Part shown: piece by piece, positions 369-18,240 of the stretch | Position numbering within the stretch: the first letter of the stretch is position 1 | Layout of the letters: every line of letters starts with the position of its first letter | NCBI RefSeq assembly: GCF_013167455.1 | Contig: NZ_CP038328.1 | From: Escherichia coli O157:H7 | GTDB taxonomy: Bacteria > Pseudomonadota > Gammaproteobacteria > Enterobacterales > Enterobacteriaceae | DNA length: 64,000 nucleotides | Reading direction: 5' to 3' (one strand) | Notes under the pieces: model-generated | What the model was told of the DNA's origin: nothing | The model's input: only the letters and a program-made list of their open reading frames with translations | The model's database searches: none | Position numbers and translations under genes: made by a program

Positions 369-1088
369 GTGAATTCACTCTATACCGCTGAAGGTGTAAT
401 GGATAAACACTCGCTGTGGCAGCGTTATGTCCCGCTGGTGCGTCACGAAGCATTGCGCCTGCAGGTTCGACTGCCCGCGAGCGTGGAACTTGACGATCTG
501 CTACAGGCGGGCGGCATTGGGTTACTTAATGCCGTCGAACGCTATGACGCCCTACAAGGAACGGCATTTACAACTTACGCAGTGCAGCGTATCCGTGGCG
601 CTATGCTGGATGAACTTCGCAGCCGTGACTGGGTGCCGCGCAGCGTGCGACGCAACGCGCGTGAAGTGGCACAGGCAATAGGGCAACTGGAGCAGGAACT
701 TGGCCGCAACGCCACGGAAACTGAGGTAGCGGAACGTTTAGGGATCGATATTGCCGATTATCGCCAAATGTTGCTCGACACCAATAACAGCCAGCTCTTC
801 TCCTACGATGAGTGGCGCGAAGAGCACGGCGATAGCATCGAATTGGTTACTGATGATCATCAACGAGAAAACCCGCTACAACAACTACTGGACAGTAATC
901 TGCGCCAGCGGGTGATGGAAGCTATCGAAACGTTGCCGGAGCGCGAAAAACTGGTATTAACCCTCTATTACCAGGAAGAGCTGAATCTCAAAGAGATTGG
1001 TGCAGTGCTGGAGGTCGGGGAATCGCGGGTCAGTCAGTTACACAGCCAGGCTATTAAACGGTTACGCACTAAACTGGGTAAGTTATAA
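369..1088 (+). CDS. fliA: RNA polymerase sigma-28 factor FliA
   Basis: 239-aa ORF with GTG start; sigma-70 family regions 2-4; recognised sequence. Confidence 0.95.
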   Translation: MNSLYTAEGVMDKHSLWQRYVPLVRHEALRLQVRLPASVELDDLLQAGGIGLLNAVERYDALQGTAFTTYAVQRIRGAMLDELRSRDWVPRSVRRNAREVAQAIGQLEQELGRNATETEVAERLGIDIADYRQMLLDTNNSQLFSYDEWREEHGDSIELVTDDHQRENPLQQLLDSNLRQRVMEAIETLPEREKLVLTLYYQEELNLKEIGAVLEVGESRVSQLHSQAIKRLRTKLGKL

Positions 1089-1133
1089 CGTCAGTAAATG
1101 CCGCACTTTAACTTTGACTACCAGGAGTTCTTA

Positions 1134-1685
1134 ATGATGGTGCAGCACCTGAAAAGACGGCCATTAAGCCGCTATCTTAAAGACTTTAAACACAGCCAGA
1201 CCCATTGCGCGCATTGCCGTAAATTGCTCGATCGCATTACCTTAGTTCGCGACGGCAAAATAGTGAATAAAATCGAGATTTCCCGCCTGGACACGCTGCT
1301 TGATGAAAATGGCTGGCAAACGGAACAAAAATCATGGGCGGCATTGTGCCGATTTTGCGGTGATTTACATTGCAAAACGCAGAGTGATTTTTTCGATATT
1401 ATCGGCTTTAAGCAATTTCTTTTTGAGCAAACTGAAATGAGCCCTGGTACGGTGCGTGAATATGTCGTTCGTCTGCGCCGTTTGGGGAATCATCTACACG
1501 AGCAAAATATTTCCCTCGATCAGCTGCAGGACGGTTTCCTTGATGAAATCCTCGCCCCGTGGCTGCCCACCACCAGCACCAACAATTACCGCATCGCGTT
1601 ACGGAAGTATCAACACTATCAGCGCCAAACCTGTACCGGACTTGTGCAGAAATCCTCCAGCCTGCCTGCTTCTGATATATATTAA
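1134..1685 (+). CDS. fliZ: flagellar regulatory protein FliZ
   Basis: ORF 1098-1685; likely start at the ATGATG at 1134 (MMVQHLKRRPL...); sits directly after fliA. Confidence 0.9.
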   Translation: MMVQHLKRRPLSRYLKDFKHSQTHCAHCRKLLDRITLVRDGKIVNKIEISRLDTLLDENGWQTEQKSWAALCRFCGDLHCKTQSDFFDIIGFKQFLFEQTEMSPGTVREYVVRLRRLGNHLHEQNISLDQLQDGFLDEILAPWLPTTSTNNYRIALRKYQHYQRQTCTGLVQKSSSLPASDIY

Positions 1686-1772
1686 ATAAGAATAAGATGT
1701 AGCGGAGTTGTTTTTGTGTTTACAAACAATGGCTCTACACTGCAAACAGACATAACAACATTCGGGGTGAAT

Positions 1773-3664
<1,892 letters not shown>

Positions 3665-9340: not shown

Positions 9341-9889
9341 ATGCAATTTAATATCCCTACGTTGCTTACACTGTTCCGTGTCATCCTTATCCCATTCTTT
9401 GTATTGGTCTTTTATCTGCCTGTCACTTGGTCGCCGTTTGCCGCCGCGCTCATTTTCTGCGTCGCGGCGGTGACTGACTGGTTCGATGGTTTTCTGGCAC
9501 GCCGCTGGAACCAGAGTACCCGGTTTGGTGCTTTCCTTGACCCTGTAGCAGATAAAGTTCTCGTGGCTATCGCCATGGTGCTGGTAACCGAGCATTACCA
9601 CAGCTGGTGGGTGACCTTACCGGCGGCAACGATGATCGCCCGTGAAATTATTATTTCTGCGCTACGCGAATGGATGGCGGAGTTGGGTAAACGCAGTAGC
9701 GTGGCTGTCTCCTGGATTGGGAAAGTGAAAACCACTGCCCAGATGGTGGCGTTGGCATGGCTGCTGTGGCGTCCGAACATTTGGGTTGAGTACGCCGGTA
9801 TTGCACTTTTCTTTGTGGCTGCGGTACTGACTCTGTGGTCAATGTTGCAATATTTGAGCGCTGCGCGTGCAGATTTGCTTGATCAGTGA
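9341..9889 (+). CDS. pgsA: CDP-diacylglycerol--glycerol-3-phosphate 3-phosphatidyltransferase
   Basis: 182-aa membrane protein with the CDP-alcohol phosphatidyltransferase motif (DGFLAR...G...DPVADK). Confidence 0.9.
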
Positions 9890-9939
9890 TCGTTTCGGCG
9901 CAATTTTCAGCAAACGATCAAAAGTGGTGAAAAATATCG

Positions 9940-9967
9940 TTGACTCATCGCGCCAGGTAAGTAGAAT
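9940..9967 (+). promoter_or_regulatory. sigma-70 promoter of the glyW-cysT-leuZ tRNA operon (-35 TTGACT, 16-bp spacer, -10 TAGAAT)
   Basis: Near-consensus hexamers with a GC-rich discriminator, ~70 bp upstream of glyW. Confidence 0.6.
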
Positions 9968-10040
9968 GCAACGCATCGAACGGCGGCACTGATTGCCAGA
10001 CGATAATAAAATCAAGTGATTAACTGATTGCTTGATGAAT

Positions 10041-10116
<76 letters not shown>

Positions 10117-10169
10117 GTTTAAAAGACATCGGCGTCAGCGGATGTCTGGCTGAAAGGCCTGAAGAATTT

Positions 10170-10243
10170 GGCGCGTTAACAAAGCGGTTATGTAGCGGAT
10201 TGCAAATCCGTCTAGTCCGGTTCGACTCCGGAACGCGCCTCCA
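10170..10243 (+). tRNA. cysT: tRNA-Cys (anticodon GCA)
   Basis: 74 nt ggcgcgttaacaaagcggttatgtagcggattGCAaatccg...ggttcgactccggaacgcgcctcca. Confidence 0.95.
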
Positions 10244-10255
10244 CTTTCTTCCCGA

Positions 10256-10342
10256 GCCCGGATGGTGGAATCGGTAGACACAAGGGATTTAAAATCCCTC
10301 GGCGTTCGCGCTGTGCGGGTTCAAGTCCCGCTCCGGGTACCA
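10256..10342 (+). tRNA. leuZ: tRNA-Leu (anticodon TAA), intact copy; prophage integration target
   Basis: 87 nt gcccggatggtggaatcggtagacacaagggattTAAaatccc...ggttcaagtcccgctccgggtacca, with long variable arm. Confidence 0.95.
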
Positions 10343-10408
10343 TGGGAAAGCTAAGAATAAAATCAAAGCAATAAGCAGTGTCGTGAAACCACCTTCGGGT
10401 GGTTTTTT
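10288..10408 (+). repeat. attL: left copy of the ~121 bp direct repeat (3' ~55 nt of leuZ plus its terminator)
   Basis: Nearly identical to 31693-31814 (one indel, one mismatch seen by eye). Confidence 0.85.
10385..10408 (+). terminator. rho-independent terminator of the tRNA operon
   Basis: gaaaccaccttcgggtggtttttt hairpin plus T-run. Confidence 0.7.
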
Positions 10409-10880
10409 CGTATTTGTATTTTGTGCAATGGCGGTAGAGTGGCGATGGTGTGGCGATATGCAGAAACAATGGTAGTGCACGTGCTGTTTAAACTCTAAGG
10501 ATGAAGCAGAATTCTTCTGCAGCTCCTCCGTATTTCGCATAGTGAACCAGGACCTCTGTTAAACAAAAATTTTTCTGGGATTTTTCCACTCGACTTTATT
10601 TTTCCTCCTGCAATCCACCAACAGGTACCTGCGCTAATCTATCTTTTTAATCTGACAACATCTTGGGAAAAGGCAAATTCGTCAGATTTACTGTTTTTCT
10701 GCTGCCTCGAATGCCGATGTCTGAAGCACTGATAAGAGTTCTATCTCTTTGATATAGATCTTTTTTTTGATGAATTGCACGACATATTATCGTTATGACA
10801 CCTTCTTGTTAAAGGTATTGTGCTCCTCATCTCGATTTTATGATGTGGGCTATGATTGGTTAGTAATTGAGTGTATCGGT

Positions 10881-11162
10881 ATGCGATGTGGTTTATTAAT
10901 GGCAATCTGCCTTTGTTTAGTATCTTTTAGTGGATATGCAGCAACAGGAAAGTCTGATGCTCAGATCAAAAAAGAAATAATTAAAGAATCCATTGAATCT
11001 TATCCAGGCAATTGTGCGTGTCCTTATAATCATGCAAGGAATGGTAGTAGATGTGGTGGACGCAGTGCATATAGCCGTAATGGAGGGTATGACGTGGTAT
11101 GTTATGAGGGTGATGTTACCGATGAAATGATCCGGCAATGGAAGCAGGAGAATGCTGAGTAA
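10881..11162 (+). CDS. small secreted cysteine-rich protein of unknown function (prophage cargo)
   Basis: ORF 10767-11162; likely start at the ATG at 10881 (MRCGLLMAICLCLVSFSGYA / ATGKSD... signal peptide); 4 Cys in the mature part; AT-rich. Confidence 0.5.
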   Translation: MRCGLLMAICLCLVSFSGYAATGKSDAQIKKEIIKESIESYPGNCACPYNHARNGSRCGGRSAYSRNGGYDVVCYEGDVTDEMIRQWKQENAE

Positions 11163-11261
11163 TCTCTTTTAACAGGTTTGTTGTGCGAGCATTATGTGCC
11201 GTTAACGGTTCACATCCCGAAAATCTGCGCTTCTGGCTGAAAGCCTGTCCGGTGGTCCTTC

Positions 11262-12398
11262 GTGAGCGATTTCATCAACAATGTAAGTGTAGATTCAATT
11301 GGTCAACGCAACAGTTATGTGAAAACATGGGGTTGCGGAGGTTTGGAACTATGGAAGAACGGAACAGGCTTCAGTGAAATAGCGAATATCCTGGGTTCAA
11401 AACCCGGAACGATCTTCACTATGTTAAGGGATACTGGCGGCATAAAACCCCATGAGCGTAAGCGGGCTGTAGCTCACCTGACACTGTCTGAGCGCGAGGA
11501 GATACGAGCTGGTTTGTCAGCCAAAATGAGCATTCGTGCGATAGCTACTGCGCTGAATCGCAGTCCTTCGACGATCTCACGTGAAGTTCAGCGTAATCGG
11601 GGCAGACGCTATTACAAAGCTGTTGATGCTAATAACCGAGCCAACAGAATGGCGAAAAGGCCAAAACCGTGCTTACTGGATCAAAATTTACCATTGCGAA
11701 AGCTTGTTCTGGAAAAGCTGGAGATGAAATGGTCTCCAGAGCAAATATCAGGATGGTTAAGGCGAACAAAACCACGTCAAAAAACGCTGCGAATATCACC
11801 TGAGACAATTTATAAAACGCTGTACTTTCGTAGCCGTGAAGCGCTACACCACCTGAATATACAGCATCTGCGACGGTCGCATAGCCTTCGCCATGGCAGG
11901 CGTCATACCCGCAAAGGCGAAAGAGGTACGATTAACATAGTGAACGGAACACCAATTCACGAACGTTCCCGAAATATCGATAACAGACGCTCTCTAGGGC
12001 ATTGGGAGGGCGATTTAGTCTCAGGTACAAAAAACTCTCATATAGCCACACTTGTAGACCGAAAATCACGTTATACGATCATCCTCAGACTCAGGGGCAA
12101 AGATTCTGTCTCAGTAAATCAGGCTCTTACCGACAAATTCCTGAGTTTACCGTCAGAACTCAGAAAATCACTGACATGGGACAGAGGAATGGAACTGGCC
12201 AGACATCTAGAATTTACTGTCAGCACCGGCGTTAAAGTTTACTTCTGCGATCCTCAGAGTCCTTGGCAGCGGGGAACAAATGAGAACACAAATGGGCTAA
12301 TTCGGCAGTACTTTCCTAAAAAGACATGTCTTGCCCAATATACTCAACATGAACTAGATGAACCGCCCCGGGTTTCCTGGAGAGTGTTTTATCTGTGA
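11262..12398 (+). pseudogene. IS30 transposase, damaged: canonical N-terminus missing, C-terminus replaced by read-through into IS629
   Basis: ORF matches IS30 Tnp from ELWKNGTGFSEIANILG... to ...LAQYTQHELD; the native start (MRRTFTAEEKASVF) is absent and the last ~12 codons read into the IS629 inverted repeat. Confidence 0.7.
11288..12357 (+). mobile_element. IS30 remnant (left IR TGTAGATTCAATTGGTCAACGCAACAG present; 3' end cut off by the IS629-like insertion)
   Basis: IS30 terminal repeat and transposase recognised from memory; the right end with its IR is missing. Confidence 0.75.
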
Positions 12399-12400
12399 AC

Positions 12401-13291
12401 TCAGGCTGCCAGATCATCGTTTCCGATGGAAGCATAATAAGCTTTTTCTGCTTCTGCCGGAGGAGTATGGCCCAGCCTTCCCAGCAATCGTCGATTGTTA
12501 TACCAGTCCACCCACGTTAGTGTGGCCAGTTCCACTTCTGCACGGTTTTTCCAGCTCTTACGGTGTATTACCTCCGCTTTGTAAAGACCATTGATGCTCT
12601 CAGCCATCGCGTTGTCATACGAGTCGCCTGTACTCCCTGTTGATGCCAGTAATCCGGCTTCTTTTAGTCGCTCCGTATAGGCCAGTGACACATACTGAGA
12701 GCCTTTATCGCTGTGATGGATGGTGCCAGACGGACGACGGGCCCACAACGCCTGCTCCAGCGCATCCAGCACGAATGTCGTTTCCATAGACGATGAGACC
12801 CGCCACCCCACGATGTATCCGGCAAACACATCAATGATAAACGCCACATAGACGAAGCCCTGCCATGTGCTGACGTAAGTAAAATCAGCCACCCACAGCT
12901 GGTCAGGTCGTTCTGCCACGAACTGACGGTTTACGCGGTCGCCTGCGGCAACGGCTTTCCGGCTGATGGTCGTACGGACCTTTTTACCCCGGAGAACACC
13001 GGCAAGTCCCATAACCGCCATGAGACGTGCCACTGTACATCTGGCCACCCTGATTCCTTCCCGTAACAACTGACGCCAGACTTTACGCACACCGTACACC
13101 TGATGATTTTCATCGTATACGCGCTGTATCTCTCTCTTCAGCCAGTCGTCGTGCTGCGCACGGGCACTGCGTTTATCCGGATGATGTCGCTGTTGCTGAC
13201 AATGGTAATACGTTGACGGGGCAATATGCAGTTCGCTGCATACCGGTCCGACCCCGTACTGCTCACGCAGCTTATCCAGCAGTGGCATCAT
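12401..13291 (-). CDS. IS3-family transposase OrfB (DDE integrase domain)
   Basis: 296 aa, [16 protein letters not shown]...; rve-type catalytic domain recognised. Confidence 0.85.
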
Positions 13292-13614
13292 TTTTTCCAG
13301 AGGCGGTCGAACTCCGCCTTCGCAAAATAAGCGGAAGCCTGGCGAAGGATATCGTTACTGCGGCGCAGTTCACGATTTTCACGTTCCAGCTCTTTCAGAC
13401 GCTGACGTTCAGCGCTGGTGAGCCCACCATCACCGCCCCCGGTATCCCGCTCATGCTGGCGAACCCAGACACGCAGAGTCTCCGGCGTACAGCCAATCTT
13501 TGGGGCAATGGAACAAATTGCCGCCCACTGTGAGTCATATTCATCCTGACTTTCCAGAACCATACGAATCGCCCGCTGACGGACTTCGGGGGAAAAACGA
13601 GTATTTTTAGTCAT
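13288..13614 (-). CDS. IS3-family transposase OrfA (HTH / leucine zipper)
   Basis: 108 aa, [22 protein letters not shown]...; overlaps orfB as expected for a -1 frameshift fusion. Confidence 0.85.
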
Positions 13615-13668
13615 CCTGTTTACCTCTTTCTCAGGGAGTTTAGTCTCCAGGATTTCCGGGGCGGTTCA

Positions 13669-14354
13669 ACACGATGGCTGAGGCGATTACCTACCGCCAG
13701 AAATTCAACGAACGTGAGGTGATGCTCTTATGGCCTGACTTCATCGCCTACAACCTGAAAAGTGGCAAAAACGAAACGTTCCCCGCGCCTGCTTATGCGT
13801 GCGGCCTTCGTGCGTACATTGACCATGAGCAGGGCTGGCACAAATCGCTGTCCAACGTTCCGGTTAAAAATGTGCTTGGGATGTCGAGGCATGTGTTCTG
13901 GTCGTTGCAGGCCGAAGACAGTGATGCCAACAGCCTCAACAACAAAGAAATCACGACCATTATTCGTCGCAACGGGTTCCGCTTCTGGGGCAACCGCACA
14001 CCGGAAACGAACGCCTACATCTTTGAGGTGTATACCCGAACCGCACAGGTGCTGGCTGATTCAATTGCGGAAGCGCAGTTTGAAACCATCGACAGTCCAC
14101 TGACACCTGCGAACGTGAAGGATGTTATCAGTGCCATCAGGGCAAAACTGGATTCACTGGTTACTGCCGGGAAACTGATTGGCGCGGAGTGCTGGTATGA
14201 CATCGAGGATAACAGCACCACGAATTTACGTCAGGGGCGTGTGCGTATTCGCTACAAATATACGCCCGTTCCTCCGCTGGAAGACATGGAGCTTTACCAG
14301 TCGTTTACTGATGAATTCTTTGGTCCCGCATTTGCGGTGCTGGGAGGTGCCTGA
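13669..14354 (+). pseudogene. P2 FI-like contractile tail sheath, C-terminal fragment (5' end cut off by IS629 copy 1)
   Basis: 226 codons continuing straight from the IS junction; resembles the sheath C-terminus; a full sheath is ~390 aa. Confidence 0.7.
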
Positions 14355-14920: not shown

Positions 14921-15450
14921 ATGAAAGAGACGAAAAACATCGATACCGAAAACACGGTAGTTACTGACACTGTGAAAGAAACCAGTGAGCGTGGTGTAAA
15001 ACTTACCCAACCAATTGAGCGAGGCGGCGAAAAAATCACGTATGTGGAGATCACCGGGGCTATTGAGCAGGCTGGATCTCTGCGAGATTTGTCGCTGTCT
15101 GATGTGCTGAATCTGAAAGCGGAATCCATGTTTACGCTGCTGTCACGCGTGACATCACCGCGACTGGATGAAGTGACGATCAAAAAAATGGCATCCCGTG
15201 ACTTTATTCAGTTATGTGTGGTTGCCGTAAATTTTTTGAGCGGTGCGGACTCTGGCGGGAAGAACGAACAGGCGACGGAAGCCTGATCACGGTTGTGTGC
15301 TTTGAGCACATAGAAGACTTTGTGGCAGATATTGCCGTTATTTTTAACTGGTCGCCCGCCGAAATCTTCATGATGACGCCCGGCGAAGTGGTTAGCTGGC
15401 GTGAGCGGGCGGCACTTCGCAGCGGGAATGCAGACAATGAAGACTCTTGA
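14921..15450 (+). CDS. tail assembly chaperone GpE and its -1 frameshift product E+E' (slippery T TTT TTG at 15232-15238)
   Basis: E frame ends at 15286; an overlapping -1 frame ORF (15214-15450) begins at the TTTTTTG heptamer, the conserved P2 E/E' recoding arrangement just upstream of the tape measure gene. Confidence 0.65.
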
Positions 15451-17527
15451 TATCCGGGTCGCTTTCAGCGCCGTTGACAGGCTGACCCGACCTGCCGAAA
15501 ACGCACGCCGCCTGATGGGGCAGTTTGGTGACTCCATCCAGCGAACGCAGGGGGCGATCAAAAATCTCGAGCGTCAGGCGCGATCATTTGAGCGCGCCCG
15601 CGACGCTGTCAGTAAAGCGGATGCTGGCATCGTGAAAGCACGACGCCAGCTTAACGCCCTTAATCAGTTACAACGCACGGGTACAGTGCTCAGCGAAAAA
15701 CAACAAAAGCTGATGCAGCAGTTAAGCACCCGGCTTGAACGCCTGAATGAATCGCGCACACGGGAAATTCAGAAAATGAGGGAACTTGGCGGAGAGCTGA
15801 AACGCCACGGCATTTCCCTGACAGGCAGCGATAACACCATTCAGCAGGCCATCAGACGCACCGAACAATACAACAACCAGCTTGAACGCGAACGGCAGGC
15901 GCTTGCGCGTGTAACGCAGGCGCGTGAGCGGTATTCGCACGCGCAGGAAACCGCGGGAAAACTGAAAACAGGTGGTGCGCTGGCAATTGGTGCGGCAGCG
16001 GCGGGCGGCTATGCTGCCGGGCGTTTTTTGCAGCCTGCGATCGGGTTCGGCAAAGAGATGTCCCGCGTTCAGGCACTGACGCGAATCGACAAAAACAGCC
16101 CGCAGTTTAAGGCGCTGCGTGAGCAGGCGTTAAAACTTGCTGAAACACAGTTTACTGCGAGTGATGCCGCCAGTGGGCAGAGCTTTCTGGCAATGGCTGG
16201 TTTTACTCCGCAGGCCATTCAGGCCGCATTGCCCGGTGTTCTTAATATGGCGCTGGCAGGTGGCGTCGAACTCGGCGAGACGGCTGATATAGGCTCCAAT
16301 ATCCTCACACAGTTCAACCTGACAGCCGATCAAATGGACCGGGTGGGCGATACGCTGACAGCAGCATTTACCCGGACCAATACTGATTTACGCGCGCTGG
16401 GCGAAACCATGAAGTATACCGGTCCGGTTGCCGCAAAACTTGGTATCAGTCTTGAAGAAGCGGCGGCCATGGCCGGGATGCTTGCCAATAATGGTCTTCG
16501 CGGAAGCGATGCTGGCACGGCCATGCGCGCAAGTCTGTCCCGCCTTGCATCACCGCCAAAAGCTGCGGCTGATGCACTGAAAGAGCTGGGGGTGTCAGTT
16601 GCTGACGCCAGAGGCAAAATGCGCCCGATGGAGGATGTGCTGCTTGATCTCTATAAGGCGACACAAAAATACGGACAGGTGGACCAGGTCTCCTTCTTCA
16701 AGGACATCGCCGGAGAAGAGGCGTTCGTTGGTTTGCAGACGCTTGTTGCGGCGGCTGGTTCAGGAGAGCTGCAAAAACTGACCAGAGAATTGCAGGGGGC
16801 AAGGGGAGAGGCCGATCGCGTCGCAAAAGTAATGGCTGATAATCTTGATGGGGACCTGAAAAATCTCGACAGCGCATGGGAAGGTCTTCGTATTCGCATC
16901 AGTGATCTGGTTGACGGTCCGCTGCGTTCTGTCACGCAGTGGCTCACGCGGGTGCTTGAAAAAATCACCTCGCTGGCGCAGGCCCATCCGGTACTGACGC
17001 GCCAGCTACTGATAGCAGGCGGTGCGTTGCTGGCAATGACTGCAACGATTGGCTCGTTGTCGCTGGTTATTGGGGTGCTTTACGGGAAGCTGGCCACCCT
17101 GCGTCTTGGTTTTGACATTCTTACCCGGTCAATGAATGTCGTCAGGGTGTTACCTGCGCTATGGGGAATGGTGACGGGTTCCGTTTCTTTACTGGGAGGC
17201 GTTATCGGGGCGTTGTTCAGTCCGGTTGGTCTTATCGTGGCTGCGCTTGCCGGAGCTGCCGTTCTTATCTGGAAATACTGGGATCCTATCAGGGCTTTCT
17301 TTGCCGGGGTGTTCAGCGGGATTATGGAAAGGCTGACCCCGTTGCGCGACACCTTTGAACGGTTTGGCCCTGTTTTTGACGTAATCGGAAGCGGTTCAGC
17401 CAGGTGTTTAACTGGTTTAAATCGCTGCTGTCACCGATGGAGTCCAGCAAGGAAACGCTGGATAAATGTACCAGTGCTGGCGAGGTATTCGGTAACGTTC
17501 TTGGTGGTGCGTTACAGCTTGTTCTGA
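15401..17527 (+). CDS. tail tape measure protein (GpT-like), N-terminal reading frame
   Basis: 708 codons, coiled-coil rich with hydrophobic segments; position after E/E'. Frame changes near 17380-17527. Confidence 0.75.
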   Translation: MSGRHFAAGMQTMKTLDIRVAFSAVDRLTRPAENARRLMGQFGDSIQRTQGAIKNLERQARSFERARDAVSKADAGIVKARRQLNALNQLQRTGTVLSEKQQKLMQQLSTRLERLNESRTREIQKMRELGGELKRHGISLTGSDNTIQQAIRRTEQYNNQLERERQALARVTQARERYSHAQETAGKLKTGGALAIGAAAAGGYAAGRFLQPAIGFGKEMSRVQALTRIDKNSPQFKALREQALKLAETQFTASDAASGQSFLAMAGFTPQAIQAALPGVLNMALAGGVELGETADIGSNILTQFNLTADQMDRVGDTLTAAFTRTNTDLRALGETMKYTGPVAAKLGISLEEAAAMAGMLANNGLRGSDAGTAMRASLSRLASPPKAAADALKELGVSVADARGKMRPMEDVLLDLYKATQKYGQVDQVSFFKDIAGEEAFVGLQTLVAAAGSGELQKLTRELQGARGEADRVAKVMADNLDGDLKNLDSAWEGLRIRISDLVDGPLRSVTQWLTRVLEKITSLAQAHPVLTRQLLIAGGALLAMTATIGSLSLVIGVLYGKLATLRLGFDILTRSMNVVRVLPALWGMVTGSVSLLGGVIGALFSPVGLIVAALAGAAVLIWKYWDPIRAFFAGVFSGIMERLTPLRDTFERFGPVFDVIGSGSARCLTGLNRCCHRWSPARKRWINVPVLARYSVTFLVVRYSLF

Positions 17528-18240
17528 CGCCTGCAAAAATGTTGCTGGATACGCTGGCGTGGATACTTGAAAAACTCGGTGTGCTTCCGGATGAAGCGGA
17601 AAGGGCGCGCAAGAAAATCGAAGACGCACAACGTGCGGCCATTCTTCAGGACAAGGTTGCTCTGTTTCAGGGAGACATTGCGAAAATCAATCCGCCGAAG
17701 TCTGCGGGAAATAGCAATGGCACCGGAGATGATAAACCCAAAGACAACAAACCTCTCACAGACAGCAATACCGGCACGCTACGCAGACTCAGCAAAATTG
17801 CTGATAACACAGGTAAGCTGGTTGATGAGACAAAAAAACGCATTGGCCCCGGCGATATTGTCTTTAAGAACCTGCCCCGCGCACTTGCTGTTCGTGGGGA
17901 GTGGCAGGAGCGGAAGATTGCGCAGGTCAGTAAGCCTGCCCCCGCAATTAATATCACACCCGTGGTCCCGGCTCCGCTGCCTCCGGCGCTGGTCCCTGTT
18001 GTTGCGGCCAGCTCCCGCCCGGTGGTGGAGGCCATACGATCGCCAGTGGCATCAGTTCCTGCAACTTCCCGTAACCGGGAGCCTGTTGCCTCCGGATTTG
18101 GCGGTGAAATTCATGTTCATCTGCATAACGTTGTTACGCAGAATCCCCGCGAACTGGCGAAACTGGTCGGCGAAATGGTCAGGGCAGAAATGGAACGGCG
18201 CGCCCGTGCCAGGCGTGGCAGTTTTTACGATAAAGATTGA
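17404..18240 (+). CDS. tail tape measure protein, C-terminal segment in a different frame (apparent frameshift)
   Basis: 278 codons in the +2 frame relative to the upstream part; this frame opens after a stop at 17377-17379. Confidence 0.6.
   Translation: MFNWFKSLLSPMESSKETLDKCTSAGEVFGNVLGGALQLVLTPAKMLLDTLAWILEKLGVLPDEAERARKKIEDAQRAAILQDKVALFQGDIAKINPPKSAGNSNGTGDDKPKDNKPLTDSNTGTLRRLSKIADNTGKLVDETKKRIGPGDIVFKNLPRALAVRGEWQERKIAQVSKPAPAINITPVVPAPLPPALVPVVAASSRPVVEAIRSPVASVPATSRNREPVASGFGGEIHVHLHNVVTQNPRELAKLVGEMVRAEMERRARARRGSFYDKD

Follow-up and report, generated by a model that had tools for sequence, protein, structure and literature searches.

The frame change within the tail tape measure gene in the 64,000-nt stretch of Escherichia coli O157:H7 DNA analyzed here (contig NZ_CP038328.1, referred to as the window) is almost certainly a real, vertically inherited frameshift. 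It inactivated the tape measure gene (gpT homologue) of the P2-like prophage known as Sp13 in strain Sakai and CP-933T in EDL933, which resides on the E. coli O157:H7 chromosome, and left a pseudogene in the course of neutral prophage decay. The analysis directly showed the lesion and its position, its spread among genomes of O157:H7, the ancestral allele, and that other morphogenetic genes have been lost from the prophage. The tape measure pseudogene itself is already known. In Sakai, ECs_2640 is annotated as 'pseudogene' inside 'prophage Sp13, P2-like phage', and the RefSeq annotation of EDL933 lists EDL933_RS14220 as 'phage tail tape measure protein, frameshifted'. Because these public annotations already mark the gene as a pseudogene, the finding as such is an ordinary one. 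Locus and lesion allele of ECs_2640 and EDL933_RS14220 are identical to those of the window (501 nt at 100%), and over the 7983-nt tail-gene region the window differs from this locus by one base. Unlike the Sakai/EDL933 locus, the window strain harbors an extra IS629-type insertion and a deletion that removed the 5' end of the sheath gene.

The identity of the gene was established from its domains, its relatives and its genomic position. In a domain-model search the upstream open reading frame (ORF) matched PF10145 with 186 bits (7.6e-55, residues 228-426; curated cut-off 33.2 bits) and the TP901-type tape measure model TIGR01760 with 284 bits (1.9e-84, residues 190-536; curated cut-off 28.8 bits). 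The downstream ORF showed no family match of its own in the same search; its aligned counterpart is the C-terminal third of intact tape measure proteins. In nucleotide comparisons a 2840-nt stretch of the window shared 96% identity with Escherichia phage 500465-2, 90% with P88 and 88-90% with other Peduoviridae (P2-like phages). Both 500465-2 and P88 contain a single 2808-nt tape measure CDS that follows the gpE/E' genes and precedes the next tail gene. The tail operon of the window is arranged in the order sheath, tube, gpE, E', tape measure and gpU homologue, which matches 500465-2 and P88 as well as the annotated loci of Sakai, EDL933 and E. coli O157 strain 493/89. The intact tape measures of 500465-2, P88 and 493/89 (WP_000853407.1, 935 aa) belong to the same TIGR01760/PF10145 family as the window gene and share its position after gpE/E' and before the gpU homologue. 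These relatives possess continuous 2808-nt ORFs, whereas the window copy (2804 nt) is shorter by 3 + 1 bases and leaves the native frame after codon 653. The full-length continuous ORF of about 935 aa that is expected of a TIGR01760/PF10145 member is absent from the window copy, which thus counts as a pseudogene within the family rather than as a functional member.

The first-pass annotation had described a switch from frame 2 (ORF ending at 17527) to frame 1 (open from 17380, ORF to 18240) with an overlap of about 150 nt, and had attributed it most simply to an inactivating indel. Translation confirmed the two frames and set their overlap at 148 nt (17380-17527). The cause was decided by DNA-level comparison, and alignment to intact homologues located a 1-nt deletion and an adjacent A>T substitution at 17393-17396, inside the flagged interval (Table 1), in agreement with the proposed indel. 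Related phages and prophages possess single 2808-nt tape measure genes to which both ORF pieces can be aligned over their entire length, which rules out a chance coincidence of two ORFs. The alignment with the phage tape measure genes contains only two gaps, an in-frame gap of 3 nt at 16139/16140 and a gap of 1 nt at 17392/17393. The base missing at 17392/17393-17395 is the sole frame-breaking difference from the continuous 2808-nt homologues. At positions 17391-17399 the ancestral GCGGGATCAG has become GCGGTTCAG, through the loss of one base and the adjacent A>T; alternatively, the change of GGGAT to GGTT may represent a single GA>T event. Translation of the upstream frame past the lesion yields an out-of-frame tail of 43 residues, SARCLTGLNRCC...RYSLF. 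The downstream frame harbors no further lesions and beyond the frameshift matches the 493/89 gene exactly. This is expected, since the mutation is so recent that all O157:H7 copies are identical.

Table 1. Positions in the window of the tape measure pseudogene, its reading frames and lesions, and neighboring features discussed in the text.
Feature	Position	Strand	Details
Tape measure gene (gpT homologue), now pseudogene	15437..18240	+	maps onto Sakai ECs_2640 / EDL933_RS14220
Upstream ORF from GTG	15401..17527	+	708 aa; annotated ATG start 15437
Upstream reading frame	15437..17527	+	696 aa = 653 native + 43 out-of-frame residues; TGA 17525-17527
Downstream frame	17380..18240	+	native C-terminal ~281 residues; from TGA 17377-17379 to stop 18238-18240
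Downstream ORF as listed	17404..18240	+	278 aa
Lesion	17393..17396	+	GGTT where all intact alleles have GGGAT; codon 653/654
Second deletion junction	16139..16140	+	3-nt in-frame GCT; Gly-Ser -> Ala at about residue 235
T_TTA_AAT heptamer	17416-17422	+	-1 register of the shifted frame, 20 nt downstream of the lesion
IS629/IS1203-type element	about 12354-13667	minus	orfA 13288..13614, orfB 12401..13291
5'-truncated tail sheath gene	13674-14354		abuts the IS629-type element

The distribution of the lesion among E. coli genomes was analyzed with queries of different length. A 501-nt segment around the lesion is 100% identical in many E. coli O157:H7 chromosomes, including those of Sakai, EDL933, TW14359 and EC4115. 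A 71-mer across the lesion was found at 100% identity in 263 complete E. coli genome records, and all serotype-labelled carriers among the matches listed are O157:H7. The remaining records, about 1000 E. coli genomes, match over a 72-nt span, except for a few partial matches among the matches listed. These data bear on the second explanation offered in the first-pass annotation, a sequencing error in a homopolymer, according to which the true sequence would be GGG and the gene would be read in one continuous frame. Homopolymer indel errors are common in some sequencing technologies, and the lesion does touch a short run of G (GGG>GG). However, a run of three bases is not error-prone, and all 263 complete records share exactly this allele together with the neighboring A>T. 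Among them are Sakai, EDL933, TW14359 and EC4115, which were assembled by different groups using different technologies. Moreover, early-branching O157 strains sequenced within the same projects contain the intact allele, so the difference between the alleles tracks phylogeny and not the sequencing method. An error of sequencing or assembly is thus exceedingly unlikely, and a sequencing artefact was rejected on the grounds that the lesion is reproducible across the 263 records.

The ancestral allele was identified by repairing the lesion in silico to GGGATC and searching again with the resulting 502-nt query. The repaired 502-mer matched at 100% in the O157 strains PV15-279, 493/89 and F3113 and at 99.8% in LSU61, while typical O157:H7 strains reached 99.6%. 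In this search the ancestral allele was confined to early-branching strains of O157. In 493/89 and LSU61 the tape measure gene is intact and 2808 nt long. Comparison with 493/89 over these 2808 nt revealed just three differences in the window, namely the deletions of 3 nt and 1 nt and the A>T next to the latter. The 3-nt GCT deletion is positioned inside the PF10145/TIGR01760 domain, and neither 493/89 and LSU61 nor the phage homologues share it, which indicates that it is likewise derived on the branch of typical O157:H7. We take 493/89, a member of the sorbitol-fermenting O157:H- clone, and LSU61 to be early branches in the stepwise model leading from O55:H7 to O157:H7. As both branch early and harbor the intact gene, both deletions arose on the branch to typical O157:H7. 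In the early-branching O157 strains PV15-279 and F3113 the GGGATC sequence is retained, and the 5' end of the gene is truncated by IS1203 (locus 14-1280). This truncation inactivated the tape measure gene independently. The F3113 gene was also seen to contain an additional internal stop.

A frame change in a P2-like tail operon invites comparison with programmed frameshifting, which the first-pass annotation had noted to be unknown in gpT. Our comparison agrees with this, as every intact homologue examined reads straight through and about 1000 E. coli records contain the extra base. The known case lies immediately upstream in the same operon. The E/E' genes of P2-like phages (G/GT in lambda) are also -1 overlapping ORFs, and their site is conserved and annotated in the relatives (GpE family protein). 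In the window, the E/E' slippery site T_TTT_TTG is located at 15232-15238, in register with gpE (14921..15286), and the E' (-1) frame runs to 15450, reaching 14 nt past the start codon of the tape measure gene at 15437. Unlike E/E', the frame change in the tape measure gene occurs in one bacterial lineage only, arises from a deletion, and is accompanied by a slip motif that is weak, without a significant stimulatory structure. A conserved programmed frameshift was rejected, as about 1000 E. coli records (72-nt span) and 12 of the 13 phage records keep one frame.

A rescue restricted to the O157:H7 allele has to be considered separately, since the heptamer T_TTA_AAT matches the X_XXY_YYZ register of the shifted frame exactly, and a slip on it would restore the native frame. 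Such a 'saviour' -1 slip on U_UUA_AAU (17416-17422) could in principle return a small proportion of ribosomes to that frame, a full-length tape measure would be made, and the locus would then be a partly expressed, degraded tail gene. Only nine residues would be altered in the rescued product (ISQVFNWFK -> SARCLTGLN), with the predicted junction peptide GLNSLLSPMESSK (…GLNSLLSPM…). In addition, a Shine-Dalgarno-like AGGTG is located 9 nt upstream of the heptamer, at a distance that resembles the spacing of the dnaX stimulator. However, heptamer and AGGTG are unchanged in the intact-frame homologues, where the native codons are TTT AAA T. Their presence there indicates that these motifs were not selected for a role in rescue. 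The heptamer is instead a by-product, because an in-frame pair of the TTT AAA type turns 'slippery' after any upstream 1-nt deletion. At least one in-register heptamer is expected by chance in about 19% of cases within 44 codons. The predicted fold of the downstream RNA is unremarkable (z = -1.3), and 22 of 200 shuffled sequences fold as well. U_UUA_AAU was graded by the general E. coli motif rules given in the text of PMC4066793, in which the values for individual motifs are contained in a figure. According to these rules, frameshifting at E. coli heptamers that lack a stimulator does not exceed the background of 0.055% by more than about 10-fold, and A-site codons of mixed purine-pyrimidine composition with non-cognate re-pairing constitute a poor class (PMC4066793). 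AAU is such a codon, and its re-pairing to AAA is non-cognate, which assigns it to the poor class under the same general rules (PMC4066793). Of the properties of a programmed -1 site, the in-register heptamer is thus present, whereas a conserved two-frame layout and a stimulator or efficient motif are not. Sp13 furthermore lacks baseplate, fiber and head genes, so that even after rescue there would be no tail for the tape measure to build. We therefore regard rescue by -1 slippage as very unlikely and do not consider the heptamer functional.

The two ORFs could also be regarded as a functional split gene, with two separate polypeptides acting jointly as tape measure or in another role. Possible internal starts for the second ORF exist at GTG 17404 and ATG 17437, and in one phage record, 520873 (NC_049344), the tape measure is likewise annotated as two CDSs (locus 537-3343). 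The split in 520873, which may reflect either a genuine mutation or a sequencing error, is situated about 1150 nt into the gene, elsewhere than the O157 lesion, and consequently the position of the split is not conserved. Tape measure proteins function as one extended chain, and the length of this chain determines that of the tail. The homologues are continuous in about 1000 E. coli records and in 12 of the 13 phage records, and the partner tail genes are missing from Sakai Sp13. This renders a functional split gene scarcely credible, and an inactivating frameshift remains the preferred reading.

The state of the prophage supports an inactivating frameshift. The first-pass annotation had suspected a defective prophage, and Sp13/CP-933T is indeed known to be defective (PMC2669165). 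In Sakai, Sp13 is reduced to 21 kb, harbors copies of IS629 and IS30, and lacks the head genes (capsid, terminase, portal) as well as baseplate and fiber genes. Most phage functions, including most morphogenetic genes, have been lost from Sp13 (Asadulghani et al. 2009, PMC2669165). According to the same study, Sp13 remains able to excise, to replicate after mitomycin C treatment and to be packaged, presumably with virion proteins of other prophages (PMC2669165). In the window the ends of the prophage are marked by a 121-bp direct repeat with one mismatch (10288-10408 and 31694-31814), the left copy of which overlaps the 3' part of the tRNA-Leu(taa) gene leuZ (10256-10342). These positions place the prophage at about 10.4-31.8 kb in the window. 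At the IS629-type element of the window strain the sheath gene has lost its 5' 498 nt, and about 1 kb is deleted relative to Sakai (Sakai 2611185-2612212). No contiguous match to the IS629-sheath junction was found among the complete E. coli genomes searched, and the junction looks strain-specific. The prophage beside leuZ in 493/89 has kept its portal, terminase, capsid, lysis, baseplate and fiber genes. This prophage is nearly complete; its gpD gene (late control D / VgrG-like) is interrupted by IS30 (locus 9528-11860), and the same IS30 is also seen in Sakai Sp13. The shared IS30 suggests that decay of the prophage began before the frameshift in the tape measure gene.

Taken as an inactivating frameshift, the lesion would have acted as follows. 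With GGGAT changed to GGTT at 17393-17396, ribosomes would produce 653 native and 43 aberrant residues and terminate at 17525-17527. About 30% of the protein, its C-terminal ~281 residues, would not be synthesized, making the gene a pseudogene. The mutation occurred on the branch to typical O157:H7, after the 493/89 clone and LSU61 had split off. It would represent one step in a neutral decay, at a time when the tail-building function was probably already lost or being lost. Since a tape measure has no tail to assemble in such a prophage, the loss of the gene is most naturally explained by neutral, hitch-hiking pseudogenisation. Both the lack of function of the truncated product and the neutral spread of the mutation are inferred.

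The significance of the finding is small, as it adds one more lesion to a prophage that has already been described as defective. What is added is the exact definition of the lesion as GGGAT>GGTT, the observation that nothing but this lesion and the 3-nt deletion separates the window gene from the intact allele found in early-branching O157 strains, and the recognition that other O157 sublineages inactivated the tape measure gene independently by insertion of IS1203. The locus thus illustrates parallel prophage decay cleanly and on a small scale, and the lesion is a possible lineage marker for typical O157:H7.
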